DNA of 53,945 bases from Thermomicrobiales bacterium (GTDB lineage: Bacteria > Chloroflexota > Chloroflexia > Thermomicrobiales > UBA6265): assembly GCA_033812595.1 (NCBI GenBank), contig JAPXTJ010000002.1, forward strand, positions 1 through 53,945, given 5' to 3'. Position 1 is the first letter of the stretch; every line of letters begins with the position of its first letter. The notes beneath the pieces are model-generated. The model saw nothing but the letters and a program-made list of their open reading frames with translations, made no database searches and was not told the DNA's origin. Both the position numbers and the translations under genes were made by a program. This document shows, piece after piece, positions 30,451 through 46,631 of this stretch.

Positions 30451-31491
30451 GTGAAAGGCACCCTGTTGGACGATCTCCTTCGAGCCCGGATCGGGCGTCG
30501 TACCCTCCTGGCTGGTTCGGCCGCCGCTTCGCTCGCGATCGTTTCGGGCGTTCACGCCCAGGGCGATGCGCCGGCCAGCCCCGCCGCGGATGGGTGGAGC
30601 TTCACCGACCTGCTCGGCAACACCATCGAACTGCCGGAGCGCCCGGTGCGTATCGCCGCCGCGATCAACACGGCGGGCGCGCTCAATGATTTCGGGATTC
30701 CCCCGACCACCGTGTTCGGCTGGACGGCATCGAATTACCCGGATGGCGATCACGTCGCCTGGGGTTCGCTCGACCCCTCCACCGTCGAGATCGTTTCGGA
30801 CATCGAGGGAAATGTCGATGTCGAAGCGCTGCTGGCAGCCGAGCCGGACCTGATCGTGACCTGGATCTGGAATCGTGATGATCCGGCCACTTCCATGGTC
30901 GGGATTCCGGCAGAGGTTACCGAGGCGATCGAATCGATCGCGCCAATTGTCATCATCAACCAGGGCGATTCGAACGAAATCGAACTCGGGCGAATCATCG
31001 AACTGGCCGTGGCGCTCGGCGCCGATCTGCGGTCCGAGCAGTTGATCGAGGATCGGCACGCGTTCGAGGGTCGCTACGTCGAAGCGAACACCATCGCTGC
31101 CGAGAAATCCGATCTGACCGTCCTTTTCGCGAGTTACAACCCGGGTGAGTTCTACGTCGCATCGCCCGATTACGTCGGCGATCTCGGGTTCGTGCGCACC
31201 CTGGGGTTCAACCTCGCCAATGACGGCTCACCCGAAGCCACCACCTACTGGGAACCGATCAGCGAGGAACAGGCGCTGAAGTACCCGGCCGATGTCATCT
31301 ACATCGATGCCTACGGCGCCTGGACCACCCTCGAGGAGTTGCAGGCGCACCCGACGCTGTCGACGCACCCCGCGGTCGCGGCCGGTCAGGTCGGAATCTG
31401 GAATCGCGATCTGCCGCTGAGCTTCGTCGGGCAGGCCCGATTCATCGAGGAAGTGCTCGCCCCGATTCGGGACGCCGAAAAGGTGAGCTAG
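30451..31491 (+). CDS. ABC-transporter periplasmic binding protein (iron-siderophore/cobalamin-type) with Tat-like signal
   Basis: RIGRRTLLAGSAAASLAIVSG signal. Overall PBP (FecB-like) pattern PERPVRIAA...PDLIVTW. GTG start. Confidence 0.65.
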   Translation: MKGTLLDDLLRARIGRRTLLAGSAAASLAIVSGVHAQGDAPASPAADGWSFTDLLGNTIELPERPVRIAAAINTAGALNDFGIPPTTVFGWTASNYPDGDHVAWGSLDPSTVEIVSDIEGNVDVEALLAAEPDLIVTWIWNRDDPATSMVGIPAEVTEAIESIAPIVIINQGDSNEIELGRIIELAVALGADLRSEQLIEDRHAFEGRYVEANTIAAEKSDLTVLFASYNPGEFYVASPDYVGDLGFVRTLGFNLANDGSPEATTYWEPISEEQALKYPADVIYIDAYGAWTTLEELQAHPTLSTHPAVAAGQVGIWNRDLPLSFVGQARFIEEVLAPIRDAEKVS

Positions 31492-31843: not shown

Positions 31844-32821
31844 GTGGAATACGTACGATTCGGGAACTCCGGGGTGAAGGTTTCACGGATGGCGCTCGGG
31901 CTCGGCCTGCGCGGCCAGAAGGATGAAGCCGAAGTCGAGCGGATGATTCGCCGCGCCCTTGATCTGGGCGTCAACCTCTTCGATTGCGCCAACGTCTATG
32001 GTCTCGGCGATACCCGCGGTCACATCGGCAAATCGGAAGAAATCCTCGGCCGGACGCTGAAGAGCGTGCGTGACGAGGTGGTGATCACCTCGAAGGTGAG
32101 TTCGCCGATCGGCGACGGCCCGAACGATCGCGGCGGATCGCGCTACCACATCATGCGCGAGGTCGAGCGTTCGCTGAAGCGGCTCGATACCGATCATATC
32201 GATGTCTACATCCTCCACGTGCACAACGCTGACGTGCCGCTCGACGAGCAATTCCGCGCGCTCGAAAACCTGGTGCAGCAGGGGAAGATTCGCTACGTCG
32301 GGGTGAGCAATTACCAGGCGTGGCAGGTCTGCCGGGCGATCAACATCCAGGATCGCATCAACGCCAGCCAGCTGATCACCGTACAGAATCCCTATAGCCT
32401 GATGGACCGCGAACTCGAACGGGAGATGTTCCCCTTCTGCCGCGCGAGCGGAGTCGGCGTGATGGCCTACTCACCGCTCGGGGTCGGGCTGCTCAGCGGC
32501 GCCTACCGGCCGGGCAGCCCGCCGCCGGCGGGGAAACTCTGGACCGAGCGGGGCGCCGCCAGTCTGCAAGCGGCGCTGAACGGCCAGCCGGGCGACGTGC
32601 TGCGGGTGGCGTTCGAGATCGCCGAGCGGCTCGGGGTGACGGTGGCGCAGCTCGCGCAGCAGTGGGTGATGACCCACCCGGAAGTTTCCGTGGTGGTCAT
32701 GGGCGCGAATACCGCCGAGCAGGTCGATGACAATCTCGGCGCGTTCGCGGTCGAGCTCACCGCCGACGATCTCGCCGCGCTCGATCAGGCCTCGAAGGGG
32801 CTCGAAATCAAGGGGTGGTAA
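31844..32821 (+). CDS. Aldo/keto reductase
   Basis: NLFDCANVYG, ITSKV and IRYVGVSNY AKR motifs. GTG start with GGGAGAAAG upstream. Confidence 0.85.
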   Translation: MEYVRFGNSGVKVSRMALGLGLRGQKDEAEVERMIRRALDLGVNLFDCANVYGLGDTRGHIGKSEEILGRTLKSVRDEVVITSKVSSPIGDGPNDRGGSRYHIMREVERSLKRLDTDHIDVYILHVHNADVPLDEQFRALENLVQQGKIRYVGVSNYQAWQVCRAINIQDRINASQLITVQNPYSLMDRELEREMFPFCRASGVGVMAYSPLGVGLLSGAYRPGSPPPAGKLWTERGAASLQAALNGQPGDVLRVAFEIAERLGVTVAQLAQQWVMTHPEVSVVVMGANTAEQVDDNLGAFAVELTADDLAALDQASKGLEIKGW

Positions 32822-33158
32822 GCGGCCGGTCCCGCAAGCACTCGCACGGCTTCTCGCGGAGCAGGTCGAACTGGCGATCAAGCGAATCGACCCATTCGTC
32901 CTGCACCGCGCTGCCCGTGGCGAGCGCGGCATCGAGCGGACTGGCGTGGCGGTATCCACGCCGCTCCATTTCCTGGACCAGGGCTTCGTGACGCGCGTGG
33001 AGCGCGCGCAATTTTCCTTGCCAGCGTCGCGTTTCCGGGTGGCGGGAATACCCGCTTCGCTGCTGCGTGAGCACCACCCAGATGGCGTGCAATTCGCGGT
33101 GTTCACCGAGCAAATGAACCCGACAGAGGATCGCCGGATCGACATCCCAAATGCGCAT
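32808..33158 (-). CDS. Pyrimidine-dimer DNA glycosylase / endonuclease V-family protein
   Basis: MRIWDVDPAILCRVHLLGEHRELHAIW...GYSRHPETRRWQGKLRALHARHEALVQEMERRGYRHASPL matches the bacterial Pyr_excise-type signature as I recall it. The start lies 4 nt after the regulator stop. Confidence 0.7.
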   Translation of the reverse strand: MRIWDVDPAILCRVHLLGEHRELHAIWVVLTQQRSGYSRHPETRRWQGKLRALHARHEALVQEMERRGYRHASPLDAALATGSAVQDEWVDSLDRQFDLLREKPCECLRDRPLTTP

Positions 33159-33162
33159 GTCG

Positions 33163-34092
33163 TTACCCGGCTCGCACCGTGGGACGCTGCGCCAGCGCTT
33201 CTTCCACGAGGCGCAGCGCCTCGGCGGGGTCGTCATTCGGCACGATCCGGGCACCGTAGCGTTCGATCATGGCCGCCTCGATCGCGGAGAGTTCGCCCCC
33301 GACGATGACCTCGAAGGGGTCATCCAGGTCGCGCAGCGCCGCCAACGCCTCTTCCAGGGCGTCCCGGGCGCTCGTTTGCTTGACCGAGAGGAGTACAACC
33401 GCCGGCGAGCGCATCGCCACCGCTTCGAGAAGAAAGCGGGTCGCCACGTCGGCCCCAAGGAACGACACCCGGATACCGCGCGCGCGCAACAGCCCCACCA
33501 CCATGCGCAGGCCGAGTTCGTGCTTTTCCCCTTCCACGCAGGCAGCCACCACCACCCCGTTTTGCCGCTCCGGCACGGCGTGGCGGCGGGTGAGTTCGGC
33601 GATCAGTTCACGCGAGAGTTCCGACACCTCTTTCTCGCGCGCCACCGGCACGTCTCCCTGTTCCCAGCGATCACCGATCTCGCGCAGGGCGGGCGTAAGC
33701 ACCTCCGTGAAGAGCGTTGCCAGCGGCAGTCCCACCTGATCGGCCCGCGCAATCACCTCCCCCGCCGCCGCCAGATCACCCGAAACCGCGTCATCGACGA
33801 ACTCGGCCGCCAGGGATTCAGCCGCCGGCAACCGGTCGAGTTCAGCCAGGCGTTCGCGGATCTGATCGAGCGTGAGGCGTTCCGCCTGCCAGCGCTTGAT
33901 CCGGATGATGCGATCGATATCGGCCGGAGCGTAGAGCCGGTGCCCCCCTTCGGTACGAGTGGAACGCGCCAATCCCTCCCGCTCCAGAAAGCGGAGGCTG
34001 GAATGACTCACGTCGGGAAAGGCCGCCTGCAGCGCCTTGACGACATCGCCGATCGATTTGAGTTGAGCCTGATTCGACTGGGTTGCGCGCAC
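33163..34092 (-). CDS. carH: MerR-family regulator with cobalamin-binding domain (CarH/LitR-type light sensor)
   Basis: MerR HTH (..SSLRFLEREGL..R.EGGHRLYAPADIDRIIRIKRWQ). B12-binding module with a VEGEKHELGLRMVVGLLRARG (E/D-x-H-x-x-G) motif. GTG start. Confidence 0.8.
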   Translation of the reverse strand: MRATQSNQAQLKSIGDVVKALQAAFPDVSHSSLRFLEREGLARSTRTEGGHRLYAPADIDRIIRIKRWQAERLTLDQIRERLAELDRLPAAESLAAEFVDDAVSGDLAAAGEVIARADQVGLPLATLFTEVLTPALREIGDRWEQGDVPVAREKEVSELSRELIAELTRRHAVPERQNGVVVAACVEGEKHELGLRMVVGLLRARGIRVSFLGADVATRFLLEAVAMRSPAVVLLSVKQTSARDALEEALAALRDLDDPFEVIVGGELSAIEAAMIERYGARIVPNDDPAEALRLVEEALAQRPTVRAG

Positions 34093-34101
34093 GGGTCACC
34101 T

Positions 34102-34122
34102 ACCTGAACCTGCAGTTCAGGT
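34102..34122. promoter_or_regulatory. Inverted repeat ACCTGAAC-CTGCA-GTTCAGGT abutting the carH ribosome-binding region
   Basis: 8-bp arms read directly, 10 nt upstream of the carH GTG. Confidence 0.35.
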
Positions 34123-34181
34123 TCTTTTATCACGTTCCCGCGCGCAATGCTACTCCCTCCTCACGATGCCCCATTCGCGAA

Positions 34182-34228
34182 CCCGTTGACAAATCTAAAT
34201 CTGTACTTTAGATTCATGTATCAACGGG
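34182..34228 (+). promoter_or_regulatory. Sigma-70-like promoter TTGACA-17-TAGATT overlapped by nested inverted repeats (candidate CarH operator)
   Basis: TTGACA at 34186-34191, TAGATT at 34209-34214. Inner IR AATCTAAA/TTTAGATT (34192-34199 / 34207-34214). Outer IR CCCGTTGA/TCAACGGG (34182-34189 / 34221-34228). Confidence 0.5.
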
Positions 34229-34279: not shown

Positions 34280-35065
34280 ATGCAAAATCGGCTTCGTTTC
34301 TATTCACTCCGGCTGATGCTGCCCGCCCTGTTGATGGCGTTCGCGGTCGCCGCTCCCGGCGCGGCCGCGCAAGACGCCACCCCCGGCCCCGACGCCGACA
34401 TGGGCGTCTGCTCCGAAGCGCTCGGCATCGGCATGGCCGGCGATTCCTGCATCAACGTGATCCACGCCTCCCCCGATGCCCCGGCCGTCGATGTCTACCT
34501 CGATGGCGCGCTCGCCCTCGAAGGTCTCGAATTCGGCGCCTTCTCGGGTTGGGTAGCGGTCCCCGCCGGTGAGCACCACGTTCAGGTGACCGCTGCCGGA
34601 TCGGCCGCGGACGACGCGGTGATCGACGCGCAGGTCGAACTCGAGGCGGATGCGGCCTACCACGTTGCGGCTACCGGCCTCCTCGCGGAAATCACCCCGG
34701 CCATCTACCAGGTCAACCTGAGCGATTTCGACGCCATGGCCGATCCGATGGCGCGGGTGCGTGTGATCCACACCTCCCCGGATGCCCCGGCGGTTGATAT
34801 CGCGCTCAAGGGCGGCGATGTGCTGATCAGCGAACTCGCCTTCCCGGATGCCAGTGATGCGCTCGAAGTTCCGGCCGGTTCCTACGACCTCGAGGTCCGC
34901 GTTGCCGGAACTACCGATGTCGCGCTCGATCTCCCGGGCGTTGAATTGATGGCTGGCATGGTCTACGACGTGTTCGCCATTGGCCAGGCCGGTGACGGCA
35001 CCCTGACGGTGCTGGTCATCCCATCCACCACGGCGGCCGCACTGATCGCGACCCCCGAGGCGTAA
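34280..35065 (+). CDS. Secreted DUF4397-like repeat protein
   Basis: Signal peptide. Two repeats begin VIHASPDAPAVDVYLDG and VIHTSPDAPAVDIALKG. GGAGAGGAG SD. Confidence 0.75.
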   Translation: MQNRLRFYSLRLMLPALLMAFAVAAPGAAAQDATPGPDADMGVCSEALGIGMAGDSCINVIHASPDAPAVDVYLDGALALEGLEFGAFSGWVAVPAGEHHVQVTAAGSAADDAVIDAQVELEADAAYHVAATGLLAEITPAIYQVNLSDFDAMADPMARVRVIHTSPDAPAVDIALKGGDVLISELAFPDASDALEVPAGSYDLEVRVAGTTDVALDLPGVELMAGMVYDVFAIGQAGDGTLTVLVIPSTTAAALIATPEA

Positions 35066-35129
35066 TCCGTTCGGAAGCCTGATCGACCGGGAGGTTCGCG
35101 AACGCGGCCTCCCGGTTTCCGGGAGCTAT

Positions 35130-36074
35130 GTGCGTATGTCCGACCACACCGCCACGTTGAGCCCGCCACTGCAGATCGCTGTCACCGGCGCCACCGGTCT
35201 CGTCGGGAGCCGGCTGGTGCCGTTCCTCCGCGCCGGTGGCCACACCGTGCACCGCATCGTTCGAACCCCCACCGGCGCGCCCGATCAGATCGCCTGGAAC
35301 CCGCAACGGGGCGAAATCGATGCCGCCGCGCTCGAAGGGGTCGATGCGGTCGTGCACCTTGCCGGTGAATCAATCGCCGGCGGTCGCTGGAATGCGGCGC
35401 GCAAGGAGCGAATCCGTTCGAGCCGGATCGAGGGCACAACCCTCCTGGCCCGCACCCTGGCGGGGCTCGACCGCCCGCCGGCGGTACTCGTGTCAACCTC
35501 GGCCGTCGGCTACTACGGTGATCGGGGCGGCCAACGACTGACCGAAGCCTCCGGCAGTGGCGAGGGCTTCCTGGCCGAGGTTTGCCGGGTGTGGGAAGCA
35601 TCGGCCGATCCGGCGCGGGCGGCGGGCATCCGGGTCGTGCACCCCCGCTTCGGGGTGGTGCTGGCCGGGGAGGGCGGGCTGCTGAAGCAACTCTCGCTCC
35701 CCTTCCGCTTCGGACTCGGCGGCAAGATTGGCAACGGCGAGCAGTACCTGAGCTGGATCGCGATCGATGATCTGCTCACGCTGCTGCTGGAAGCGATCAG
35801 GAACGACGCGCTGGACGGCGCGGTCAACGCGGTCGCACCGGGCGCGGTGACCAATGCGGAGTTCACCGAAGCGCTCGGCCGGACGCTGCACCGGCCGACC
35901 TTCCTGCCCCTGCCGGCCTTCGCCGCCAGGGCGGCGTTCGGCGAAATGGCCGATGAACTCTTGCTCGTAAGTCAGCGTGCCGAGCCTGCTGTGCTACATA
36001 ACGCCGGCTTTCATTTCATCTACCCTGACATCACGAGCGCGCTCGGGCACGAACTCGCGCCCGGCGCCTCGTGA
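35130..36074 (+). CDS. TIGR01777 (YfcH/SDR39U1)-like atypical SDR with DUF1731-type C-terminus
   Basis: IAVTGATGLVGSRLVPFL Rossmann motif. The C-terminal ..QRAEPAVLHNAGFHFIYPDI.. is typical of the family. Paralogue at 48359-49750. Confidence 0.8.
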   Translation: MRMSDHTATLSPPLQIAVTGATGLVGSRLVPFLRAGGHTVHRIVRTPTGAPDQIAWNPQRGEIDAAALEGVDAVVHLAGESIAGGRWNAARKERIRSSRIEGTTLLARTLAGLDRPPAVLVSTSAVGYYGDRGGQRLTEASGSGEGFLAEVCRVWEASADPARAAGIRVVHPRFGVVLAGEGGLLKQLSLPFRFGLGGKIGNGEQYLSWIAIDDLLTLLLEAIRNDALDGAVNAVAPGAVTNAEFTEALGRTLHRPTFLPLPAFAARAAFGEMADELLLVSQRAEPAVLHNAGFHFIYPDITSALGHELAPGAS

Positions 36075-36895
36075 GCGAAAGGACGTACCGCATGGCGATG
36101 AACCCGGCGCTCTCCGCCTCCGCCCGGCCGATCGAACGTGACACCGCGCACCGGTTGCGGCGCTTCAATCTCGTGGTCGGCGCGATTCACCTCGCGCAGG
36201 CGATCGTGCTGCTGGCGCTCAGCAACGACTTCAAATTGCCGATCCTCGCCTCGTTCGTGGACGGACCTCCGGGCACCGCCCCGAGTGAACCCTCGGTGCT
36301 CTGGAACGTCCCGCTCGGTCCGGCGGTGGCGCTCTTCCTCCTCTTCGCGGCGGTCGATCACCTGCTGATGGCGACGCCCAAAGTCGAAGGCTGGTACCTC
36401 GAGAGCCTGCGCCAGCGGGTGAATCGAGCGCGCTGGACGGAGTACAGCGTCAGCGCGTCGTTGATGATCGTGTTGATCGCGATGATCACCGGCATTCTCG
36501 ATATGACCGCCCTGGTGGCGATTTTCGCCGCCAACATGGGCATGATCTTCTTCGGCCTGGTGATGGAATCAACCAGCAAGCCGGATGACGAGCGGGTCAA
36601 CTGGTGGCCCTTCATCTTCGGCTCGATCATCGGCCTCGCTCCCTGGATCGCAATCGCGATGCAGGTGGTGCACACGAACGAGAACGCGACCGGGGATGGC
36701 ATTCCCGGTTTCGTTTACGGGATTCTCGTATCGCTCTTCATCTGCTTCAACTCGTTCGCCGTCAACATGGTCCTGCAATACCGGCGGGTCGGTCCGTGGC
36801 GTTCCTATGAGTTTGGCGAGCGGGCGTACATCGTTTGCAGTCTGGTCGCGAAATCCGCGCTCGCCTGGCAGGTCTTCGCCAACACCCTGGTGTAG
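36071..36895 (+). CDS. Heliorhodopsin
   Basis: Seven TM helices. Motifs match heliorhodopsin 48C12 as I recall it: LALSNDFKLP, RWTEYSVSASLMIVLIA (counterion Glu), PGFVYGILVSLFICFNSFA, GERAYIVCSLVAKSALAWQVF (Schiff-base Lys, AAA at 36851-36853). The GTG start overlaps the upstream stop (GTGA). Confidence 0.85.
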   Translation: MSERTYRMAMNPALSASARPIERDTAHRLRRFNLVVGAIHLAQAIVLLALSNDFKLPILASFVDGPPGTAPSEPSVLWNVPLGPAVALFLLFAAVDHLLMATPKVEGWYLESLRQRVNRARWTEYSVSASLMIVLIAMITGILDMTALVAIFAANMGMIFFGLVMESTSKPDDERVNWWPFIFGSIIGLAPWIAIAMQVVHTNENATGDGIPGFVYGILVSLFICFNSFAVNMVLQYRRVGPWRSYEFGERAYIVCSLVAKSALAWQVFANTLV

Positions 36896-36939
36896 GCGAG
36901 AACGCGGGCGGTTGTTCCCGGCCGGAATCGAGGCCGGTG

Positions 36940-37881
36940 ATGTTTGGCGCGGGTGACGAACGTGGTTTGTCCTTCCTGTCTGACGGAGGCAAGGTCATCG
37001 TGGATGAACAATCCAGGGCCGAAGCGGCCCTTTGCCGCGAGATTGCCCGCTCCAAGGGCCGGAGCTTCTATCTGGCGAGCTTTTGCCTCGCGCCCGATCA
37101 GCGCCGCGCCATCCACGCCGTTTACGCCTACTGCCGCGTTGCCGACGATATCGTCGACCTGGCGGATCGCGACTCACGGGATGCCGCCGAACGCAAGCTC
37201 GATGCCTGGCGCGATCAGCTCCACGAACCGGTCGATCCGGTGGCGCGCGCCTTCGCCCGGGCACGGGCGGCGTACGGCATTCCGCTCGAACCGGCGCTCG
37301 CCCTGATCGAAGGGGTGCGTGGCGATCTCTCCCCCGAATCGTTCTTCGGCTGGCCCGAGTTGCGCCGCTATTGCCACAAGGTGGCCGGGACGGTCGGGTT
37401 GCTGACCGCGCCAGTGCTCGGCTGCCGCGACCCCCGTGCCCTGCCGCGCGCCGATGAACTCGGCATCGCCATGCAGTTGACCAACATCGTGCGCGATGTG
37501 GCGGAGGATGCCGCCGCCGGCCGCGTCTATCTTCCCTTCGCCGAAATGCGCGCTTTCGGCTGCGATCCCGAAGCCCTCCTGCAGGGTCGGCCGACCGGTG
37601 ATTTCGCCGGTCTGATCGCGCTTCAGGTCGACCGGGCGCGGGGACTCTACCGGAGCGCGCTGCGCGGCGTGCCGGCGCTCGATCGCAACGGCCAGCTCGC
37701 CACGCTTGCCGCCGCGCGGCTGTACGGTGAAATCCTGGGGGAGATCGAACGGGCGAACTTCGACGTCTTTCGCGGGCGGACGCGCGTATCCGGTCCGCGC
37801 AAGCTCCGGCAGGCGCCGGTGGTTGCCGCCGATTTCATTCGCAGTGCGTTCGGGTCGGTGGATTACGTAGCCTCTTCATGA
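36940..37881 (+). CDS. crtB: Phytoene synthase
   Basis: YAYCRVADDIVD and NIVRDVAEDAAAGRVYLP Asp-rich motifs. The start is ambiguous (ATG 36940 or GTG 37000, the latter preceded by GGAGG). Confidence 0.85.
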   Translation: MFGAGDERGLSFLSDGGKVIVDEQSRAEAALCREIARSKGRSFYLASFCLAPDQRRAIHAVYAYCRVADDIVDLADRDSRDAAERKLDAWRDQLHEPVDPVARAFARARAAYGIPLEPALALIEGVRGDLSPESFFGWPELRRYCHKVAGTVGLLTAPVLGCRDPRALPRADELGIAMQLTNIVRDVAEDAAAGRVYLPFAEMRAFGCDPEALLQGRPTGDFAGLIALQVDRARGLYRSALRGVPALDRNGQLATLAAARLYGEILGEIERANFDVFRGRTRVSGPRKLRQAPVVAADFIRSAFGSVDYVASS

Positions 37882-39377
37882 CCGAAATCGCGCGCGATCA
37901 GCGTATCGACGATCGTCGCCGACGACAGGACACCGGGCAATCCGGCGCCGGGATGGGTACCCGCGCCGACAAAGTACAGGCGATCGAGTTCTTCGGAGCG
38001 GTTGTGCGGGCGAAACCAGGCCGATTGCGTGAGGATCGGCTCGACCGAAAAGGCCGATCCGAGGTAGCTGCTCAGGTCATCGCGAAAGTGGCGCGGATCG
38101 ATCATGCGCTCGGTCACGATATGGCGCGAAAGATCGGGCAGGAAACGCCGTTCCAGGGCGGAGATGATGGCATCGCGATACGGACGCGCCCGCGTTTCCC
38201 AATCCACGCCGCCACCGAGATGCGGCACCGGCGCGAGCACGTAGAACGTTTCACCCCCGGGCGGGGCCAGCGAAGGATCGGTCAGGGTGGGCATGTGAAG
38301 ATAGAGCGAAAAGTCGTCCGCCAGCACCTTCCGGTCGAAGATGTCGGCCAGCAATTCCCGGTATCGCGGGCCGAGAACGATATTGTGATGCGCCAGCGGC
38401 GATGCGCCCGGATCACGGTACCGGCGATCGGTTCCGAAATAGATCACCACCAGCGACATCGAATAGCGCATGTTGGCCAGACGGCGATCGGTGTACTTGC
38501 GGCGCAACCGCGCCGGAACCAGGCGCTGATAGGCGGCGGCAACCTCGGCGTTGCAGACCACCGCGTCGGCGGTGATTTCCGTGCCGTCGGCGAGCCGGAC
38601 GCCGGTTGCGCGCCGGCCACTGGTGAGGATCTCCGCCACGTCGGTCCCGAGCAGCAGGGTTCCGCCGAGCTCGAGGAAGAGCTTTTCCAGCGCGGCCGTG
38701 ATCGCGCCGGTGCCGCCCATGGCGTACCAGACCCCCCAGGTTCGTTCGAGATGATGAATCAGCGCGTAAATGCTCGTCGTTTGAAACGGATTGCCGCCGA
38801 CCAGCAGGGGATGAAACGACAGCACCTGGCGCAATCGCTCATCGCGCACGTAGCGCGCGACCAGGTCGTAGACCGTGCGGTAACTCTGCAACCGCACCAG
38901 ATCGGGCGCCACCTTCAGCATCTGCCACGGCGAGTGAAAGGGCGTGGTGGCCAGTTCGGTGAAGCCCTTGTCGAAGATGCGTTCGGTTTGGAGCAGGAAT
39001 TGCCGGTAGCCCTCGAGATCGCCGGGATGCGGGCTGAACGCGGCGATGCGATCAGCCATGGCCGCGGCATCGCCCGAGTAATCGAACTGCGCGCCGTCAT
39101 CGAAGAAGATGCGGTAGAACGGATCGACCGGGACGAAGTCGACGTACGCGTCCCGCTTGCGGCCGGCCAGTTCGAAGAGTTCATCGATCAGCCAGGGCGC
39201 GGTGATCACGGTCGGGCCGCCATCGAAGGTGAAGCCCTGATCCTGGTACACGTAGGCGCGGCCACCGACCTTGTCGCGGCGTTCGATCAGCGTAACCCGG
39301 TGCCCGCGCGCGGCCAGGCGAATGGCCGCCGCCAGACCGCCGAAGCCGGCGCCGATGACAACGAACTGGTTGGACAT
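37863..39377 (-). CDS. crtI: Phytoene desaturase
   Basis: MSNQFVVIGAGFGGLAAAIRLAARGHRVTLIERRDKVGGRA plus the C-terminal GAGTHPGAGLPGV motif. GGGGAG lies upstream of the ATG at 39377. The 99-codon extension in the track is rejected. Confidence 0.9.
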   Translation of the reverse strand: MSNQFVVIGAGFGGLAAAIRLAARGHRVTLIERRDKVGGRAYVYQDQGFTFDGGPTVITAPWLIDELFELAGRKRDAYVDFVPVDPFYRIFFDDGAQFDYSGDAAAMADRIAAFSPHPGDLEGYRQFLLQTERIFDKGFTELATTPFHSPWQMLKVAPDLVRLQSYRTVYDLVARYVRDERLRQVLSFHPLLVGGNPFQTTSIYALIHHLERTWGVWYAMGGTGAITAALEKLFLELGGTLLLGTDVAEILTSGRRATGVRLADGTEITADAVVCNAEVAAAYQRLVPARLRRKYTDRRLANMRYSMSLVVIYFGTDRRYRDPGASPLAHHNIVLGPRYRELLADIFDRKVLADDFSLYLHMPTLTDPSLAPPGGETFYVLAPVPHLGGGVDWETRARPYRDAIISALERRFLPDLSRHIVTERMIDPRHFRDDLSSYLGSAFSVEPILTQSAWFRPHNRSEELDRLYFVGAGTHPGAGLPGVLSSATIVDTLIARDFGHEEAT

Positions 39378-39475: not shown

Positions 39476-40603
39476 ATGAAACGGGCGTTGGTGAATCTGA
39501 TCGCGCTGGCGCAGGTTGTGCTCGGACTCCGCCTGGTCGCGCGTTTGCTGCGGACATCCCGGGGGACGCGGATCCGGCCAACCTCGAGCCTCTATCCGCC
39601 CTCGATCGGCGTCCTCGTTCCTGTCCTCGACGAAGCGCAGCGTATCGTTCCCTGTCTCGAGCGGCTGATTGCATTCGGTCCGGAAGTGGCGGAGATCGTC
39701 ATCGTCGACGGTGGTTCCGTAGATGAAACGCCGGCGATCGTGGCGGAGTACGCGGCGCGGGACAAGCGGATTCGCCTCGTCGAAACCCGGCCGCCGGATG
39801 GAATCAACGGCAAAGTGCATGGCTTGGAGGTGGGATTGGCCGAACTCACCGCCCGGTGGGTGTTGACCATCGACGCCGATGTCCGGCCGAGCGCAGCGCT
39901 GCCGCCGGCGCTGCTCCGCCGCGCGCACGCGGAACGGCTGCGCATCCTGAGTGTGGCGACCGAACAGTGGCTGGGGGACCGATTGGATCAATTCGTCCAT
40001 CCCTCCATGCTCGCCACCCTCATCTACCGCTTCGGGATTCCCGGCCACGCCACCCGGCGCGCCGCCGCTGTTCAGGCCAATGGTCAATGCATGTTGATCC
40101 GGCGCGATCTGCTCGATGCCCTCGGCGGATTCGCGCCCCACGCCCGGGTCATTGCCGAAGATGTCAGCCTGGCGCGCGCCGCTGCCCGGGCCGGTGAGCG
40201 CGTCGGGTTCTACGAAACCGAGGGGCTCGTTTCCGTGGAGATGTACCGGAGCGGACGGGAAACCGCGCGAAACTGGAGCCGTTCGCTGCCGCTGCCGGAA
40301 TCGCGACCGTTCCGGAACCGGCTTGGCGACCTGGCGAATCTCCTGCTGCTCCAGGCCGCCCCGCCCTATCTCTTCGCGGCCGCTGCACGGCGCCGGGGCT
40401 TCGCCCGGGCGGTGAACGGAGCGCTCATCGCCACGCGGATCGGGATTCTGGCCGGCGCCCGGCGGGCGTACCGCAACCCGGATGCGTGGTACTGGTTCTC
40501 TCCGCTCGCCGATTTGCCGGTGGTCGCGCTGCTGATCATCCGCTCCGCGCAACGACGCCACCGGTGGCGCGGCCGCGTGATTCACCCGGGAGGTGGACGA
40601 TGA
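39476..40603 (+). CDS. Family-2 glycosyltransferase (carotenoid glycosyltransferase candidate, CruC/CrtX-like role)
   Basis: IGVLVPVLDEAQRI, IVDGGSVDETP and TIDADV GT2 motifs, with C-terminal TM helices. The carotenoid role is inferred from context. Confidence 0.7.
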   Translation: MKRALVNLIALAQVVLGLRLVARLLRTSRGTRIRPTSSLYPPSIGVLVPVLDEAQRIVPCLERLIAFGPEVAEIVIVDGGSVDETPAIVAEYAARDKRIRLVETRPPDGINGKVHGLEVGLAELTARWVLTIDADVRPSAALPPALLRRAHAERLRILSVATEQWLGDRLDQFVHPSMLATLIYRFGIPGHATRRAAAVQANGQCMLIRRDLLDALGGFAPHARVIAEDVSLARAAARAGERVGFYETEGLVSVEMYRSGRETARNWSRSLPLPESRPFRNRLGDLANLLLLQAAPPYLFAAAARRRGFARAVNGALIATRIGILAGARRAYRNPDAWYWFSPLADLPVVALLIIRSAQRRHRWRGRVIHPGGGR

Positions 40604-41469
40604 GCTGGTTGACGCCGATGCGTCTCACCTGGGCGTTGCTGACCCTGCACCTGGTGGCGCTCGTTTTCGGACTGATCGGCATGCTGATCATGCTGCCGAA
40701 TCCCGATCTCTGGGCGCACGATCGCAATGCCGTCCGCGTCTTCGACTTCTCCATGCAGTACGCCGGCGCGGTGCACATCTGGCTCGGCGCGGCCGCGATG
40801 TTCGCCTACGGCGTGGTGGCGATCGGCTGGCGCAAGACGGCGATCTTTGCGGCGATTGCCTACCCGCTTTCGTTGACCTCCGAACTCTTTGGCACCGGCA
40901 CCGGCTGGCCGTTCGGCAACTACGCCTATACCGATTTCCTCGGCCCGAAGGCATTCGATCACGTACCCTGGTCGATTCCCGCGTCCTGGTTCTACATGGG
41001 GTTGGCGTCATACCTCCTCGGCAGCGCGATCGTGGCGCAACTCGGCGTGAAATGCGAACTGCTCTGGTCTTGCCTGGCGGGCGCCTGGCTCCTGACCGCC
41101 TGGGATCTGGTGCTCGATCCGGCGATGGCGCACGAATCGCTCCGCATCAAATTCTGGATCTGGGACGAAGCCGGCCCCTACTTCGGGATGCCGGTCAAGA
41201 ACTTCATCGGCTGGACCGTCACGGCCTTCCTGTTCATGGTGTTGAGCCGGTTCGCCTGGCGCGAAAGCGCCCGGATTGGCGCGTCGCTCCGGGCGCCGGT
41301 CATCATCTTTGTCTCGAATATGCTGTTCGCGATCGTGATCAGCGCCTCGGTGGGACTCTGGATTCCGATCGCGCTGGCGATCATCGTCGGCGTGGCGCCG
41401 CTGCTGGTCATTCGGCGGGAGCAACCAGGCGTCAATCGCTTCGGACGCGGAGCAACGCTCGATGCCTGA
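40600..41469 (+). CDS. Carotenoid biosynthesis membrane protein (DUF422/CruF-like 1',2'-hydratase family)
   Basis: GTGTGWPFGNYAYTDFLG...HVPWSIPASWFYMG signature and ~7 TM helices. ATGA overlap with the GT2 stop. Confidence 0.7.
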   Translation: MSWLTPMRLTWALLTLHLVALVFGLIGMLIMLPNPDLWAHDRNAVRVFDFSMQYAGAVHIWLGAAAMFAYGVVAIGWRKTAIFAAIAYPLSLTSELFGTGTGWPFGNYAYTDFLGPKAFDHVPWSIPASWFYMGLASYLLGSAIVAQLGVKCELLWSCLAGAWLLTAWDLVLDPAMAHESLRIKFWIWDEAGPYFGMPVKNFIGWTVTAFLFMVLSRFAWRESARIGASLRAPVIIFVSNMLFAIVISASVGLWIPIALAIIVGVAPLLVIRREQPGVNRFGRGATLDA

Positions 41470-42121
41470 CATGCCGTGGCGCTTCCTGCGCGTCTGGAGC
41501 CGGCGATCGCTGGCGCGCGGGGCTGACCTGCACGTCGCGGGCATCGAACATCTTCCCGCCGATGGTCCGGCGCTGCTGGTGGTGCGCCACGTTCACCACC
41601 AGCGGGACGGCGAGGCGTTGTTGGCCGCAATCGAACGGCCGGTGCACCTGGTAGTGGCGATCGACTGGCCGACGAACCGGGCGACACGGTCGGCGCTGGC
41701 CGCGGCCTGCCGGTGGGCACGCTGGCCAGCGGTGATCCGGCCCGAATCAGCGCTCGGCGCGAACCGGGCGAACGCGCGCCGGTGCAATGCCCGGGCGATG
41801 CGCGAGGCAGTGGAGTTATTGGACGAGGGGCGGCTGGTAGCGGTTTTCCCCGAAGCCTATCCCGATATCGACAACAATCCGCGACCGGACACGCTGCCGG
41901 CCGGCGCGCTTCCCTTCCGGAGCGGCTTCGAACGGCTCGAGCGCCTGGCGAATCAGGGCGGGAAGCAGACCCCGATCGTACCGGTCGGCATCTCCTTCGA
42001 GCCCGGTGAGCGCGCGCGAATCTCGCTCCGATTCGGCGCCGCCATTCATCGGCGCGGCCTCGACGATGACGCGCTGCGACGGACGGTCGAAGCGGAAGTC
42101 CGTCGCCTGAGCGAAGGTTGA
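41462..42121 (+). CDS. Lysophospholipid-acyltransferase-family protein (carotenoid-glycoside acyltransferase candidate, CruD-like role)
   Basis: PALLVVRHVHHQRDG and VAVFPEAYP blocks resemble PlsC-type motifs. 8-nt overlap with the upstream gene. Confidence 0.6.
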   Translation: MPDMPWRFLRVWSRRSLARGADLHVAGIEHLPADGPALLVVRHVHHQRDGEALLAAIERPVHLVVAIDWPTNRATRSALAAACRWARWPAVIRPESALGANRANARRCNARAMREAVELLDEGRLVAVFPEAYPDIDNNPRPDTLPAGALPFRSGFERLERLANQGGKQTPIVPVGISFEPGERARISLRFGAAIHRRGLDDDALRRTVEAEVRRLSEG

Positions 42122-42311: not shown

Positions 42312-43559
42312 CTAATCCCCGACTTCTATGGTAGCCGCGTCATCCTTGGTCAGCAGTACGCTGGCGCCGCCGTTGGAATTGACGGTTTCAAGCCGCAGCG
42401 AGAAGGTGTACTCGCCCGGCTCCCAGCCGGTCAGCGGCAGGTACCGCTGCGCCACCGTGGTGACGCCCTGATCGAGAATGAGATTCTCCGCCAGAACGAA
42501 CTCCTCGAGCGGTTCACCATTCTTCTCGACGATCAGGACGAGTCGAGCCGAACGGACCGTTTGGGCGTTATTGATGATTTCGACGCCGACGGCCGCGAAC
42601 TGGATCGGTTCGGCGTTGGGAACGACGAGAATCTCGCCGAACTCAAGCGGAGCGGACTCACCTGAAGGTGCCTCGGGCATCGTGACTGACACGTCCTCGA
42701 ACCCGTTGGTGAAGCCACTCACAACATCAGTCAACTGAAGTGAAACCAAGTATTCACCGGCTGGCAAGGCAGTGCGGAGCGTCTGATACACGTGGGTTTC
42801 GTGCAGACCGTAAACCGTACCCATCACGAACTCTTCGTCCATGACGGTCACGCCATCGAGAGTCTTGATCACCATCTGCCCTTGCATGCGCAGGGAGGTT
42901 TGGCCCGTATTCACGAGGGGGACATAGATTGCGGTACGCCGGCGTTCGTATTCGAGCCTGGGTGTTCCAAGTTCGAACCCCGCCTGAACTTCACCAGGCA
43001 CCACCACGTACACGGCCATAACCTTGCGAACCTTTTGCGTGAAGTTCGCATTGCCTGGCACTTCATACGCATTGACCGTTTCAACGGCAATTGGAATCAC
43101 GTATTCACCGGGCGGCGTGCCCTCCGGTACGTTGATCTCGGCATCGCGCCCGACCTCAATCTGCGGCTCAATGTCGTAATACCGGGTCGGGAAGTCTATC
43201 CACGTGGTTGGCTCGTGTTGTTCAGAACCTTCGGGCGCAAGCTGAAGCCCGCCGTTCAGTTTGGTGCTCACGTCTGACGTAAAGGCAAAGACCGGCAGTA
43301 TTTCCTGACCGAGGTTTCCGATAAAGACCCGAATGGTGGCGCGTTCGCCTGGATCGATCTCAACAATGATCCGTTCACCATCACCCTGGCCGTCTCCACG
43401 GAGCACAAACTGAACTTCTGAACCGGACTGACTCGTCGCTGGCTCTTCTTCGTCGGTTTCATCATCTTGAGCGAATGTGGCAAGAGGAGAGATTGCGCCC
43501 AGTAGCAACGCAAAAGCGACGAGCAGTGGTAGAAAACCACGCGATCCGTTTCGTTCCAT
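42312..43559 (-). CDS. Secreted three-domain Ig-like protein, DUF916/DUF3324-like (WxL-cluster partner-like)
   Basis: Signal MERNGSRGFLPLLVAFALLLGAISPLATFA and an acidic linker. ..IEIDPGERATIRVFIGNLG.. / ..TWIDFP..VPEGTPPGEYVIPIAV.. / ..LVNTGQTSLRMQG..LPAGEYLVSL.. patterns. GGAGGAG SD at the ATG at 43559. Confidence 0.5.
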   Translation of the reverse strand: MERNGSRGFLPLLVAFALLLGAISPLATFAQDDETDEEEPATSQSGSEVQFVLRGDGQGDGERIIVEIDPGERATIRVFIGNLGQEILPVFAFTSDVSTKLNGGLQLAPEGSEQHEPTTWIDFPTRYYDIEPQIEVGRDAEINVPEGTPPGEYVIPIAVETVNAYEVPGNANFTQKVRKVMAVYVVVPGEVQAGFELGTPRLEYERRRTAIYVPLVNTGQTSLRMQGQMVIKTLDGVTVMDEEFVMGTVYGLHETHVYQTLRTALPAGEYLVSLQLTDVVSGFTNGFEDVSVTMPEAPSGESAPLEFGEILVVPNAEPIQFAAVGVEIINNAQTVRSARLVLIVEKNGEPLEEFVLAENLILDQGVTTVAQRYLPLTGWEPGEYTFSLRLETVNSNGGASVLLTKDDAATIEVGD

Positions 43560-43699
43560 TTTAGGCGCTCCTCCACTCGCACGAGCGGAATCCCAAGAAA
43601 AACCAGACACTATTCGGTTGTGCACGAAGGTTGGCTCTGCCAAGCCTTCTTGAGTTAGACGATAACGATGCCATCCAGCATAGTTATCGATGAGGCGAG

Positions 43700-43796
43700 G
43701 GATTCGCCGGCTCGCTTGAGGGTCGCCGGCGAATCCAACTCGTCTCGGTTTGACCAGGGAGCTGATCCGATCCAACGGGTCAGCTCCCCTTTTTTT
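43700..43796 (+). terminator. Two strong hairpins; the second (GGGAGCTGA-N14-TCAGCTCCC + C-T7) is an intrinsic-terminator shape oriented for the plus strand
   Basis: GGATTCGCCGGC/GCCGGCGAATCC at 43700-43736. GGGAGCTGA/TCAGCTCCC at 43757-43788, followed by a T-run at 43790-43796. Both flanking genes are on the minus strand. Confidence 0.45.
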
Positions 43797-43817
43797 CGCT
43801 GGTGCTGACGCTGCTAT

Positions 43818-44507
43818 TTAGTCAGTCGTCAGTTCAACGGTAATGGTGGAGGAGTACGTGTTGCTACCCCACAGGAACGGAAGATCTTCCAGGAAGCCCG
43901 TGTAGCTGGCAACCGTCGTGAACGGCGCCGGGTTGGCATCGAACGAGCCCGGGCCGAAGATGAGGTTCAGCAGGAAGGTGAGCAGGTTCGTGTTCGTGGC
44001 AAGAATTTCCTCGCCGCACGGTCCGCCCGGAGTGGTGGAGTTGTTGCAGGTAAACTGCGCGTCGCTGACGTCCGGCTCCATCACGTCATCGAAGAACAGC
44101 GGATCGTCGACGCCATCGAAGTAGTAGTCAACTCCCTCAGCCTCGAGGCTGAGGTGATCCGCGCCAAAGCGCTGAGTAGTATCCGGCGACGTGAAGCGGG
44201 TGGCCGTCGCGTTCACCTGCCAGGAGCCGAGGTAGCACCCCATGTCCACGGTGACCTTGATCGCGCCTTCTTCAGTTTGGGTGCTGCGATCTTCAACGAT
44301 GTTTTCGATGTCGTCGAAGGTGACGGTTTCGCCGTCGTCATCCGCGGTGATGTTCACCGAGGCGGCAACAGGACACGAAATCAAGACACTGCCCGTAACC
44401 GTGTCTGTGTCTTCCAAGGCGTTGACGGAGGTCGCCAGGCCAGCCATGGTGCCCATCATGAGGGCGGCAACGCCGACGAATGCGATGAGTCGTTTCATGA
44501 GTTTCAT
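43818..44507 (-). CDS. Secreted WxL-like domain protein
   Basis: Signal MKLMKRLIAFVGVAALMMGTMAGLATSVNA. GSWQVNATATRF and a C-terminal YSSTITVELTTD parallel the two WxL motifs. AAGGAG SD at the ATG at 44507. Confidence 0.5.
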   Translation of the reverse strand: MKLMKRLIAFVGVAALMMGTMAGLATSVNALEDTDTVTGSVLISCPVAASVNITADDDGETVTFDDIENIVEDRSTQTEEGAIKVTVDMGCYLGSWQVNATATRFTSPDTTQRFGADHLSLEAEGVDYYFDGVDDPLFFDDVMEPDVSDAQFTCNNSTTPGGPCGEEILATNTNLLTFLLNLIFGPGSFDANPAPFTTVASYTGFLEDLPFLWGSNTYSSTITVELTTD

Positions 44508-44702
44508 GATCGGTTGACTCCTTTTCCCATTTCCCTTTGTTCCCCCTGGAGCGTGGACACGCTGCCCCGCTCCCATGCTTGTCGTGCTATTTCCACCTCC
44601 CTGCCCGGGCCCTGTCCCGGCTCCCCTTCACGCGCTCCTTTTATAGGAACGTCCCTTGCAAGCTTTCGAGCGCGCCCGCGCCCGAAGCGACAGAAAGCAC
44701 AT

Positions 44703-45938
44703 TCATTCGCCTTGCGGCATGACCGCGACCTCCACGGTGACCGCAGTTCGATACGTTCCTCGCGGGAGAAACGATCCGACATTGAGTTCCAGCGAAACCT
44801 CGAACGTACCCGTGTCTGGTCGCGGTTCGGGACTCTCAGGAATCAGGAGCGTGATCACGCCCCCGTCACTCGTCACGGTGACGCCATCAAGGCCAGCCAC
44901 CGCGATGGCAACCAGGTTTTCAGCGGCAAGCTGTTGCTCACCGGCGACAAAATCGGCAAAGTGGAAGGAAATCGACCACCCGCAGGTAGCGGGAGCGGCC
45001 GCGAACGGCACGACCAGCGACCCGGCGGAAATGCGGCTCTCCAGCAGGTTCTCGATCGGGGCAAAGGTGAGCGCTACATCGTGAAGCCGGGGCGCAACCG
45101 GCGCCTGACCCCCAATGTGGATCTCCTCGGTTGCTTCATGAACGCGAGGTGTGGACTCATCTGATGCGTTCGCCACGAGGTCGACATCGAGCGTCGTTCG
45201 CACCGGCGCCAGGCAGCCGAACCGCACCCCGATCAGCAGGTCAGCCGATGTGAATGTCTCCGCGTCGTCCGGTGCGTGCAGTGTCAGCCTTTTCTCGCTG
45301 ACCTCGATCCGCTCGATGAGCGCGGATTCATCCTCACCCGGCAATTCCGCTTCGAGCACACGAACGGTCCACCCGCTATCCCGCGGTTGAACCGAGAACG
45401 CCAGGCTCTCGATATCGCGGGTTTCCCAGGTCACCGAGCACTTGAGCAGGGTCCAGTCACGTTCACCCGCAACCGCGGCTTCATCTTCAACCCGCGGCTC
45501 GCACTCGAGCTCCGGCGCGAACGGAATCACATTTTCAGAGGCTACATTCTCGTCCTCAGCATCTGGCACCGGTGTTCCCGGCTGGTCTTCGGAATCAGCG
45601 TCACCAAGCGCCGCTTCATCCTGGGATGGTGTCTCCTCCGGGGTGGGGACTTCGGTCGTGGGTTCTGTCGGTACCTCGGTCTCCTCGACTGGCGGGGGTT
45701 CAGCAATGGGAGGGTTGGCTTCTGTTGGCGTCGGTTCCGGGAGGGTGGTTTCGATCGGCGCCGAGGGCGTTCCGGCGTCCGGATTCCCAACTTCGTCGGC
45801 CAGCGCGGGCAGTGGAGCCAGGATCATGAGCGCAAGGATCAAAACCAGTCGCCAACCGCGGGATACGCCTCGATCGAACCTCCGGGCCGGGCGACCGTGG
45901 CTGAACGTACTATGTCGATCGTGTGTCCCGCCCCGCAT
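44703..45938 (-). CDS. Secreted Pro/Glu/Thr-rich protein with a C-terminal WxL-like domain; paralogue-like of 43818-44507
   Basis: Signal ..WRLVLILALMILAPLPALA, then a ~90-aa P/E/T-rich linker. CGWSISFHFADF and C-terminal GTYRTAVTVEVAV. GGAGG SD at the ATG at 45938. Confidence 0.5.
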   Translation of the reverse strand: MRGGTHDRHSTFSHGRPARRFDRGVSRGWRLVLILALMILAPLPALADEVGNPDAGTPSAPIETTLPEPTPTEANPPIAEPPPVEETEVPTEPTTEVPTPEETPSQDEAALGDADSEDQPGTPVPDAEDENVASENVIPFAPELECEPRVEDEAAVAGERDWTLLKCSVTWETRDIESLAFSVQPRDSGWTVRVLEAELPGEDESALIERIEVSEKRLTLHAPDDAETFTSADLLIGVRFGCLAPVRTTLDVDLVANASDESTPRVHEATEEIHIGGQAPVAPRLHDVALTFAPIENLLESRISAGSLVVPFAAAPATCGWSISFHFADFVAGEQQLAAENLVAIAVAGLDGVTVTSDGGVITLLIPESPEPRPDTGTFEVSLELNVGSFLPRGTYRTAVTVEVAVMPQGE

Positions 45939-46631
45939 TGGGTTGGCCTCCAAGTGCCCATTCTGGAGTCTGCTGCTCGTCACGATACGCCCGGAAAACA
46001 GCGCTGATGATATGTTACGTATAAGCCAGCCGATGAGGGAAGTCAATCGGTTGCTGCGTCAATCGTCCCGGGTTCTCTGTCGGGATCATACCACAAGCGC
46101 CTAGTCGTCTGGATTGATGAATTGATTGCGCACAACAAGAGCTGTGAATACGTCTCGCTTGGCAATTGCCCGCATACGTACGCCACATTTACGTTGATTC
46201 GTGCCATGCTAGGGCCGGGATATACGCCATACGTCGCCGATGAAGGTCACTTATGGCAATCTATAGTGTACATAAGTCAGACCATCACGGTGCTTTAGTT
46301 ATGCTAACTCCAGGCGAATTCCCTGGTAGACGGGCGAGAATTTCGACGATCGTTTATGGTAACTCTCTCTCATAATTGATAGGACTGTCTGGCCCCAAAC
46401 CCCGACCTCCCGGCTGGTTTTTCCGGGTTGCTTCCTTTGGACGCGTTCATGTGCGTACGATCGCTCGATCGGGATTCAACCGGGGCCTCGGGGTGAGCGG
46501 ACACCACCCGTTGGTTCAGGGACATATGCCAGCCAACCGGTTAGCGATATCGGTATCACCCAATGTTCCCACTCGAGCCACACGCGCTCTAAATGGCGAT
46601 TGCGGCGAATATGTGACCGCACAACACGAAC

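Follow-up and report, generated by a model that had tools for sequence, protein, structure and literature searches.

We analyzed a heliorhodopsin (HeR) gene and its neighborhood in a 53,945-nt stretch of a Thermomicrobiales genome (assembly GCA_033812595.1, contig JAPXTJ010000002.1, positions 1 to 53,945), hereafter the window. On balance, the gene is probably an accessory member of a putative light-controlled operon of the CarH type. A CarH-like regulator is encoded on one strand and, divergent from it, genes for a DUF4397 protein, a short-chain dehydrogenase/reductase (SDR) of the TIGR01777 family, HeR, and the phytoene synthase CrtB follow in this order. This supports the proposal, made in a sequence-only reading of the same DNA, of an intact HeR gene beside carotenoid and ultraviolet (UV) repair genes, in an operon that light plausibly regulates. 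The context combines three known themes, namely HeR operons, CarH-type light regulons, and the carotenoid cluster of Thermomicrobium, and is not a new kind of system. The features of the operon and its control region are as follows.

32808-33158, minus strand: pyrimidine-dimer glycosylase (Pyr_excise; PF03013, 2.6e-26), directly downstream of the regulator gene
33163-34092, minus strand: CarH/LitR-like regulator with a MerR helix-turn-helix (HTH) domain, a four-helix bundle, and a B12-binding domain (Pfam, 5C8D)
34107-34123, no strand assigned: operator-like dyad 1, AACCT-N7-AGGTT, adjoining the carH start, its position kept in relatives
34186-34214, plus strand: sigma-70-type promoter TTGACA-17-TAGATT, its spacer and -10 element overlapped by dyad 2
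34198-34214, plus strand: operator-like dyad 2, AATCT-N7-AGATT, covering the promoter spacer and -10 element
34280-35065, plus strand: DUF4397 protein with two repeats and an N-terminal signal peptide or anchor (PF14344, 4.4e-46), first gene of the operon
35130-36074, plus strand: SDR1, an atypical SDR of the TIGR01777/DUF1731 type, 314 aa (TIGR01777, 325.7 bits)
36078-36083, plus strand: Shine-Dalgarno sequence AAAGGA for HeR, 8 nt ahead of ATG 36092, with GAAAGGA at the same distance in the related locus L005
36092-36895, plus strand: HeR, 267 aa (profiles and 48C12 alignment), within a maximal reading frame from GTG 36071
36918-36937, plus strand: GC-rich hairpin between HeR and crtB (44-nt spacer) whose T tail is weak, not a canonical terminator
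36940-37881, plus strand: crtB, phytoene synthase family (SQS_PSY; PF00494, 1.9e-76), called as a 313-aa gene on the window's own contig (L001)

The 274-codon open reading frame (ORF) at 36071-36895 on the plus strand encodes what is, by its sequence, a genuine and functional-looking heliorhodopsin. Its product matches PF18761 at 8.4e-96 (320.4 bits, cutoff 26.7) over profile positions 1-242 of 242 and scores 301.7 bits against the NCBIfam HeR equivalog NF038020 (cutoff 100). Solved HeRs, including 48C12 and TaHeR, match at 1e-68 to 1e-33, with a phmmer value of 1.3e-68 for 48C12. We aligned residues to 48C12 using PDB entry 6SU3 and give them in the numbering of the 267-aa protein. The Schiff-base lysine is K254 (48C12 K241; codon 36851-36853), the single Glu counterion is E117 (48C12 E107) within RWTEYS, both histidines are kept (H33 for H23 and H90 for H80), and the FNSFA stretch aligns to F206-N207-x-x-A210. 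The family assignment and the Lys, Glu, and FNSFA hallmarks, which had been called from the letters alone, were borne out by the full-length profile matches and the alignment. The fenestration residues F162/C166/G169/F206/N207/A210 of 48C12 read F/S/G ... F-N-x-x-A in the window protein, with Ser at the C166 position. Six to seven hydrophobic segments are present, and RLRRF and other Arg residues precede the first transmembrane segment; by the positive-inside rule, an indirect topology cue, this Arg-rich N-terminus would fit an N-in topology. The window protein thus resembles 48C12 (6SU3/6UH3) and TaHeR (6IS6) in its full-length profile, Lys, Glu, both His, and FNSFA region, but differs in an identity of only about 50%, the Ser for C166, and the gene context. 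It is a further member of a well-known family.

The start of the HeR gene requires revision. It had been placed at GTG 36071, so that start and SDR stop would overlap in GTGA and couple translation of the two genes. We rejected this start in favor of ATG 36092 on the grounds of homologue lengths, recorded products, and Shine-Dalgarno spacing. The nearest homologues are 267-268 aa long; the 267-aa protein read from ATG 36092 occurs, in identical form, on seven public contigs, whereas the 274-aa product is not on record; and a GAAAGGA common to the window and L005 lies 8-9 nt before the aligned ATG/GTG starts. The HeR gene of L005 has no in-frame start further upstream. Since ATG 36092 is the start, 17 nt separate the SDR stop from the HeR gene; the GTGA is literally present but incidental, and for this locus the idea of translational coupling through an overlap is probably wrong. 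Genuine 4-nt SDR-HeR overlaps occur in the relatives L094 and L007, and junctions range from -4 to +28 nt across five loci.

The DUF4397, SDR1, HeR, and crtB genes share one strand, with gaps of 64, 17, and 44 nt, and a single promoter-like site was found in 9.7 kb. The 17-nt SDR-HeR spacer is too short for a promoter of its own and shows no signal of one, and no promoter-like site was found in the HeR-crtB spacer. The crtB gene, confirmed behind HeR on the same strand as had been claimed, is probably the last gene of the operon and under the same control, with a gap of 44 nt, a weak hairpin, and no promoter-like site in the spacer. The hairpin is a possible attenuator that could lower crtB expression relative to HeR. 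No riboswitch or structured RNA in the window was matched in Rfam.

Comparison of the control region provides good evidence for a putative regulator-binding site that would control DUF4397-SDR-HeR. The intergenic region between carH and the DUF4397 gene (187 bp) is poorly alignable across five syntenic loci (the window, L005, L091, L007, and L094), with a mean identity of 44%. The exception is the block TTGACAAATATAAACCTATACTTTAGGTTTATAT, a -35 hexamer followed by an inverted repeat over the -10 element, which is kept in L005, L091, L007, and L094. The dyad AAYCT-N7-AGRTT has two exact matches in 53.9 kb, compared to 0.03 expected, and both fall in this intergenic region; among 99 loci, the relatives with a match were L005, L007/L008, L091 (twice), and L094, in each case at the equivalent position and nowhere else. 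The arms of dyad 2 in the window (AATCT/AGATT) depart from the consensus AACCT/AGGTT by symmetric changes that preserve the dyad. No further operator copies were found at the crtI/cruG spacer or upstream of a second SDR gene described below, and relaxed matches were at the level of chance (33 against 26 expected).

The divergent regulator contains the Pfam domains MerR_1, B12-binding_2, and B12-binding and aligns with Thermus CarH (5C8D; TtCarH residues 34-282) at 6.6e-22, with the HTH and the B12-binding domain both covered. Like the CarH/LitR regulons of Thermus, Myxococcus, Bacillus, and Streptomyces, the locus pairs the gene of a putative MerR-HTH and B12-binding repressor with divergent carotenoid genes, has an operator-like site overlapping the promoter, and includes crtB as a predicted controlled step. 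In Thermus, crtB is the step controlled by CarH, and the CarH operator consists of three 11-bp direct repeats. The window differs from these regulons in that its operator-like site is an inverted dyad and its putative regulon holds a rhodopsin. The adjoining UV-damage glycosylase was also confirmed. Within the maximal ORF (32808-33254), the Pyr_excise match begins at residue 33, and the L005 and L091 homologues are 116-120 aa long and lie 4-5 nt after carH. We also observed a gene for a Peripla_BP_2 binding protein (a family that includes B12 and siderophore binders) at 30451-31491 on the plus strand, 1.7 kb from the B12-type regulator. The syntenic stretch of L005 lacks this gene, and in the unrelated HeR locus L098 a Peripla_BP_2 gene (3690-4919) directly follows HeR.

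We used synteny across relatives to determine how the HeR gene relates to its neighbors. HeR loci were gathered by exact-product look-ups and a metagenome scan and scored with tblastn and hidden Markov models (HMMs), and adjacency was counted only in loci with enough upstream flank. The SDR gene adjoined HeR in 3/3 loci with an HeR identity of at least 75%, in 1/2 at 64-75%, in 0/14 at 55-64%, and in 0/30 below 55%, i.e., in 0/44 below 64%. Likewise, crtB followed HeR in 3/5 loci at 75% identity or more (L001, L005, L091) and in 0/50 below. The module of carH, divergent from an optional DUF4397 gene, SDR, and HeR, recurs in L005, L091, L094, and L007; L094 has neither DUF4397 nor crt genes and carries an IS element after HeR, and L007 has no crt genes. 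A scan of reference genomes with a single protein yielded three loci and no new module context (L008 is a duplicate of L007, and the module is missing from L009/L010). The co-occurrence of the SDR and DUF4397 genes with HeR, which the sequence-only reading had put up for comparison in related genomes, therefore holds in L005, L091, and L007, and for the SDR alone in L094, but not beyond this narrow clade.

The same scaffold also occurs without HeR. In L100/L101, carH is divergent from SDR, with Pyr_excise, crtB, crtI, a family 2 glycosyltransferase (GT2), cruF, and an acyltransferase gene on the other side. In L102-104, from a Thermomicrobiales metagenome-assembled genome, carH is divergent from DUF4397, SDR, a SOUL-domain protein, and crtB, with the acyltransferase and Pyr_excise genes further on. 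The SOUL heme-binding-family gene (L102 9485-10183, GCA_021156145.1; 1e-41) occupies the slot of HeR behind SDR, so that a different chromophore-binding protein is found at this operon position. A further arrangement is seen in the P0082 contig (JGI 3300056388, 9432 nt; HeR identity 60%), which reads SDR, FMN_dh, crtB, crtI, GT2, cruF, acyltransferase, HeR; here HeR closes the cluster, its gene sharing 4 nt with that of the acyltransferase. A search from the SDR side showed that its family is very large and includes diderm Planctomycetes. In a neighbor-joining (NJ) tree, HeR-linked and HeR-less SDRs share the same subclades, and HeR identity tracks SDR identity across these subclades. We considered separate HeR-linked and housekeeping SDR lineages and rejected them on this tree, in which L100 and L102 nest among HeR-linked SDRs. 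Contigs of the same size were also tried as a proxy for HeR/SDR co-location; this held for P0082/P0156 and was a coincidence for P0067/P0188, and the four same-size contig pairs (2798, 2496, 2484, 5619) were not counted as evidence.

The simplest reading of these gene orders is that the CarH-[DUF4397]-SDR-carotenoid scaffold is a stable, vertically inherited unit in a Thermomicrobiales-like group, and that HeR is an accessory gene recruited into, moved within, and lost from the cluster, usually sitting behind SDR and once behind the acyltransferase. Gene order would thus mainly reflect one light and photoprotection cluster and does not single out the SDR or DUF4397 proteins as HeR partners. 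Since both genes occupy the same CarH-controlled slot without HeR (L100, L102), they are only weak partner candidates. The earlier view that they are concrete partner candidates for HeR stands insofar as the order recurs in relatives, but is curtailed by the narrow clade, by the slot without HeR, and by the position of the P0082 HeR at the acyltransferase.

B12-type regulators also adjoin HeR genes in other architectures. In L048 (5946-8759; HeR identity 58%), the regulator has the canonical motifs Wx9EH and ExHxxG, and its gene lies divergent from a promoter, TTGACA-17-TACATT, that carries the core AATCTGTAC, the same as in the window; a secreted protein with two fasciclin domains and then HeR follow, with no SDR. 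In the marine locus L046 (7668-10762; HeR identity 51%), a protein with a B12-binding domain, the full light-response signature, and a C-terminal XRE-type HTH is encoded divergently from HeR, with an NmrA-like NAD(P)-binding protein downstream of the regulator. Three architectures therefore place such regulators beside HeRs: MerR with a cobalamin-binding domain (CBD), DUF4397, TIGR01777, and HeR; MerR-CBD, fasciclin, and HeR; and CBD-XRE with the NmrA-like protein and HeR. By these gene arrangements, light-gated HeR expression would appear to be a recurrent design rather than a one-off.

These contexts extend a published picture. HeR neighborhoods are very diverse in general (PMC8612252; PMC11109279), and carotenoid and photolyase genes have been described around Znf-HeRs by Bulzu et al. 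(PMC8612252). Ten recurrent HeR neighbor groups, including 'MerR family regulator' and 'SDR oxidoreductase', are listed in PMC11109279, whose accessible text does not discuss the B12 aspect of the MerR neighbors. The same paper reports that HeRs regulate partner proteins; HeR operons with partners include those with glutamine synthetase, photolyase, and the ABC transporter OmrDE. The window resembles these partner operons in that HeR is co-oriented and tightly spaced with the gene of a soluble NAD(P)-binding protein and a MerR regulator adjoins; it differs in that the neighbor is an upstream TIGR01777/DUF1731 protein and the MerR regulator is of the B12-binding CarH type. Our literature search returned nothing linking HeR with DUF4397, DUF1731, or TIGR01777.

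Taken together, an accessory HeR in a CarH-type operon would work as follows. In the dark, the regulator would sit on the dyads, repress the operon, and autoregulate carH together with the pyrimidine-dimer glycosylase gene. In light, it would be released from the dyads, allowing joint production of the secreted DUF4397 protein, the cytoplasmic NAD(P)-binding TIGR01777 protein, HeR, and phytoene synthase. The last would provide the committed step to acyclic carotenoid glycoside esters, which crtI, cruF, cruG, and the acyltransferase would finish. HeR would be produced only in light and would act as a slow-cycling membrane photoreceptor that tunes a co-expressed protein through light-dependent contact, as shown for other HeRs. 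This role, that of a photoreceptor made in light and acting on a co-expressed protein, is the most likely one for HeR, though only weakly suggested. Because the SDR-HeR pair survives without DUF4397 and/or crt genes (L094, L007), the TIGR01777 protein would be the best, if unproven, candidate for its target.

Several observations weigh against this reading. We infer co-transcription of the operon from the sequence, and its light control from the family and context of the regulator. The near-consensus TTGACA-17-TAGATT promoter was located where the sequence-only reading had described it; such sites are no commoner than chance predicts (1 found, 1.4 expected), but the block is preserved across the five aligned loci. 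The dyad is missing at the crtI and cruG/cruF/acyltransferase genes, and dyad control would therefore extend to only part of the cluster. The regulator is of the CarH/LitR type in its MerR and B12 domains and its match to 5C8D, but scores 111.7 bits against the NCBIfam CarH equivalog cutoff of 400 and departs from the light-response signature. Four key residues, W131, E141, H142, and H177, make up that signature (PMC11796333). The window protein keeps the W, the E, and the equivalent of the lower-axial His H177 (IGDRW, GxxW; GEKH), but has Lys for H142 and Glu for H132, i.e., Wx9EK rather than Wx9EH, at residues ~140-155. The Wx9EK variant is common to five of six aligned relatives (L005, L091, L094, L007, and L100), with L102 keeping E-H. 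Since His142, a published key residue, is replaced, adenosylcobalamin (AdoCbl) photochemistry of this regulator is uncertain. On the HeR side, the closest HeRs that lack the module, those of L095-97 (P0010, 74% identity), stand alone between LuxR/STAND-type regulators, so HeR function clearly does not require the module. L095-L097 belong to the JGI sample series that also yielded L005/L091 (3300048xxx), and L096 shares its sample with L092, which duplicates the L091 locus; the HeRs of L095-L097 could be a second HeR paralogue or belong to another species.

The SDR itself adds a further point of this kind. SDR1 is a TIGR01777-like SDR as had been claimed (325.7 bits, cutoff 207.35), with a DUF1731 match of 8.9e-18 and GATGLVG as its GxxGxxG motif. 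No YxxxK motif was found anywhere in its 314 aa, consistent with the label 'atypical'. The family match, the GxxGxxG motif, and a C-terminal DUF1731 are shared with ThyD, GC1, SDR39U1, and YfcH (4B4O, 3OH8). The orthologues in L005, L091, L094, L007, L100, and L102 are 460-482 aa long and carry an N-terminal SRPBCC/START-like domain; its Pfam match (Polyketide_cyc) is weak, and the two-domain structure 3OH8 is matched at 6.6e-84 over both domains. SDR1 aligns at 72% identity with the L005 protein (473 aa) over residues 159-458 of the latter, and the SRPBCC domain (~155 aa) is cleanly absent, with an in-frame stop 33 codons upstream and no SRPBCC remnant in the 64-nt spacer 35066-35130. A full-length paralogue is present elsewhere in the window.

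48350-49750, plus strand: SDR2, full-length SRPBCC-TIGR01777 paralogue of SDR1, 466 aa, outside the operon and with no dyad upstream

SDR2 lies between a Rieske/amidohydrolase pair and a gamma-glutamyltranspeptidase gene, is 71% identical to SDR1 in protein and 73% in nucleotide sequence, and represents a separate, local duplication. Given the lost SRPBCC domain and this full-length paralogue, SDR1 may be degenerating or specialized. The DUF4397-like gene in the string was likewise confirmed, and the sole hydrophobic segment of its product spans residues 7-30.

Among alternative explanations, a dedicated partnership fares best, though we consider it unlikely: light-activated HeR would bind the TIGR01777 SDR, and possibly the DUF4397 protein, at the membrane and switch it on or off. 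The SDR gene lies directly upstream of HeR in five independent loci, including loci without carotenoid genes (L007, L094) or DUF4397 (L094), the junctions are tight (-4 to +28 nt), and HeR and SDR diverge in parallel. TIGR01777 relatives are membrane-associated and light-related; Anabaena ThyD, of this family, is induced 5-8-fold in high light and needed for high-light acclimation (PMC11711299). Other HeRs act through bound partners, and the published neighbor groups include an 'SDR' one (PMC11109279). Against the partnership, the same SDR fills the same CarH-controlled slot without HeR (L100, L102), the fused SDR family is very large and reaches diderm Planctomycetes, adjacency is absent from all 44 loci below 64% identity, and the P0082 HeR is coupled to an acyltransferase rather than to SDR. 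Furthermore, no enzymatic activity has been reported for any TIGR01777 family member (PMC11711299), and the published SDR group is made up of classical SDRs, encoded downstream of helR in Actinobacteria and Thermococcus, rather than TIGR01777 proteins (PMC11109279). By analogy with ThyD, a TIGR01777 protein in a light regulon would make sense without any rhodopsin. An elaboration that we regard as rather improbable is a two-tier circuit, in which a B12-based photoreceptor switches on HeR, and HeR either gates the ThyD-like TIGR01777 protein or docks an acyl-glycoside carotenoid as an antenna.

The carotenoid genes bear on a second alternative. In addition to crtB, the window cluster contains the following genes, so that crtB, crtI, CruF hydroxylase, GT2, and acyltransferase genes are all together.

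37863-39377, minus strand: crtI phytoene desaturase (TIGR02734, 634 bits; called as a 504-aa gene on L001), convergent with crtB
39476-40603, plus strand: CruG-like GT2, carotenoid glycoside-ester tailoring
40600-41469, plus strand: CruF 1'-hydroxylase, carotenoid glycoside-ester tailoring
41462-42121, plus strand: acyltransferase, carotenoid glycoside-ester tailoring

The crtB, CruF, and CruG equivalog cutoffs were not reached, and these assignments follow from family and context. The set resembles the Thermomicrobium roseum cluster trd_1158-1167, which makes acylated oscillol diglycosides in an organism with no lycopene cyclase (PMC2615216). Both have crtB, crtI, CruF, GT2, acyltransferase, and conserved hypothetical genes, with acyclic products expected. 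The T. roseum cluster also includes a glycolate-oxidase paralogue, as does the P0082 contig (FMN_dh); it differs in that hydroxylase and acyltransferase are fused and that no HeR is reported there. Three genes without a Pfam match (487, 252, and 447 aa; 42312-46046, minus strand) flank the carotenoid cluster of the window, and L005 and L091 have genes of similar size, likewise without a Pfam match, at the corresponding position and on the corresponding strand.

In this second alternative, which appears quite improbable, HeR would use a product of the cluster, either a carotenoid antenna at the lateral fenestration or a retinal supply, and the SRPBCC-SDR would act as a lipid carrier or retinoid oxidoreductase. 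HeR occurs at two positions in the same carotenoid cluster (the window, L005, and L091 as opposed to the P0082 contig), its fenestration residues are kept and a preprint proposes a carotenoid-binding site there (10.1101/2025.11.27.691015), and the orthologous SDRs carry the SRPBCC lipid-binding domain. The psi-end chemistry of the T. roseum cluster resembles that of salinixanthin, the antenna of xanthorhodopsin (PMC2615216); in that system, too, a rhodopsin gene is present in a maker of an acyl-glycoside carotenoid. However, xanthorhodopsin is a type 1 pump rather than an HeR, and salinixanthin docks by its 4-keto ring, as known antenna carotenoids dock by a ring, which is absent from acyclic oscillol derivatives. 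The antenna idea for HeR comes from docking only. CarH-SDR-HeR is retained in L007 and L094, where no carotenoid genes lie nearby, and SDR1 of the window has neither the SRPBCC domain nor YxxxK. Finally, no lycopene cyclase, Blh, or RPE65-type/carotenoid-cleavage gene was found among the ORFs scanned with Pfam in the 54-kb window. As far as the window shows, the pathway adjoining HeR would therefore be unable to supply retinal. The earlier suggestion that the neighbors handle the HeR chromophore is weakened by the missing cyclase and cleavage genes and by the acyclic cluster type.

That HeR and its neighbors are mere neighbors, with HeR expressed from its own signals in an unrelated role and the adjacency a lineage-specific accident, is very improbable: the linkage is limited to a narrow clade, HeRs at 60-74% identity stand alone (L095-97, L098, L105), and HeR neighborhoods vary widely (PMC8612252; PMC11109279), but the 17-nt spacer offers no place for a promoter, the SDR-HeR pair persists through rearrangements in five loci, 4-nt overlaps occur in relatives, and B12-type regulators recur beside HeRs in two further unrelated architectures.

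Elsewhere in the window, tandem GntR/FCD regulator paralogues lie at 13067-13792 and 13854-14603 (minus strand), with 76% nucleotide identity. The M24 peptidase gene (8099-9376, minus strand) and DNA ~2.6 kb upstream share 78-85% DNA similarity in short blocks (6246-6658 with 8817-9229), which suggests a second peptidase paralogue there, with its ORF called on the wrong strand.

Only a few partners of HeRs have been shown experimentally. As a probable accessory gene in a putative CarH-type operon, the HeR of this locus stands in a well-defined, conserved, and tractable context, with a short control region, a clear operator-like site, a B12-type regulator, and few proteins predicted to be co-expressed. 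Comparison across loci constrains the hypothesis: as members of a photoprotection cluster that also exists without HeR, the SDR and DUF4397 proteins are not to be assumed to be its partners. Of the signals seen here, the most general and the least reported is the repeated placement of HeR genes beside regulators of the B12-photoreceptor type.

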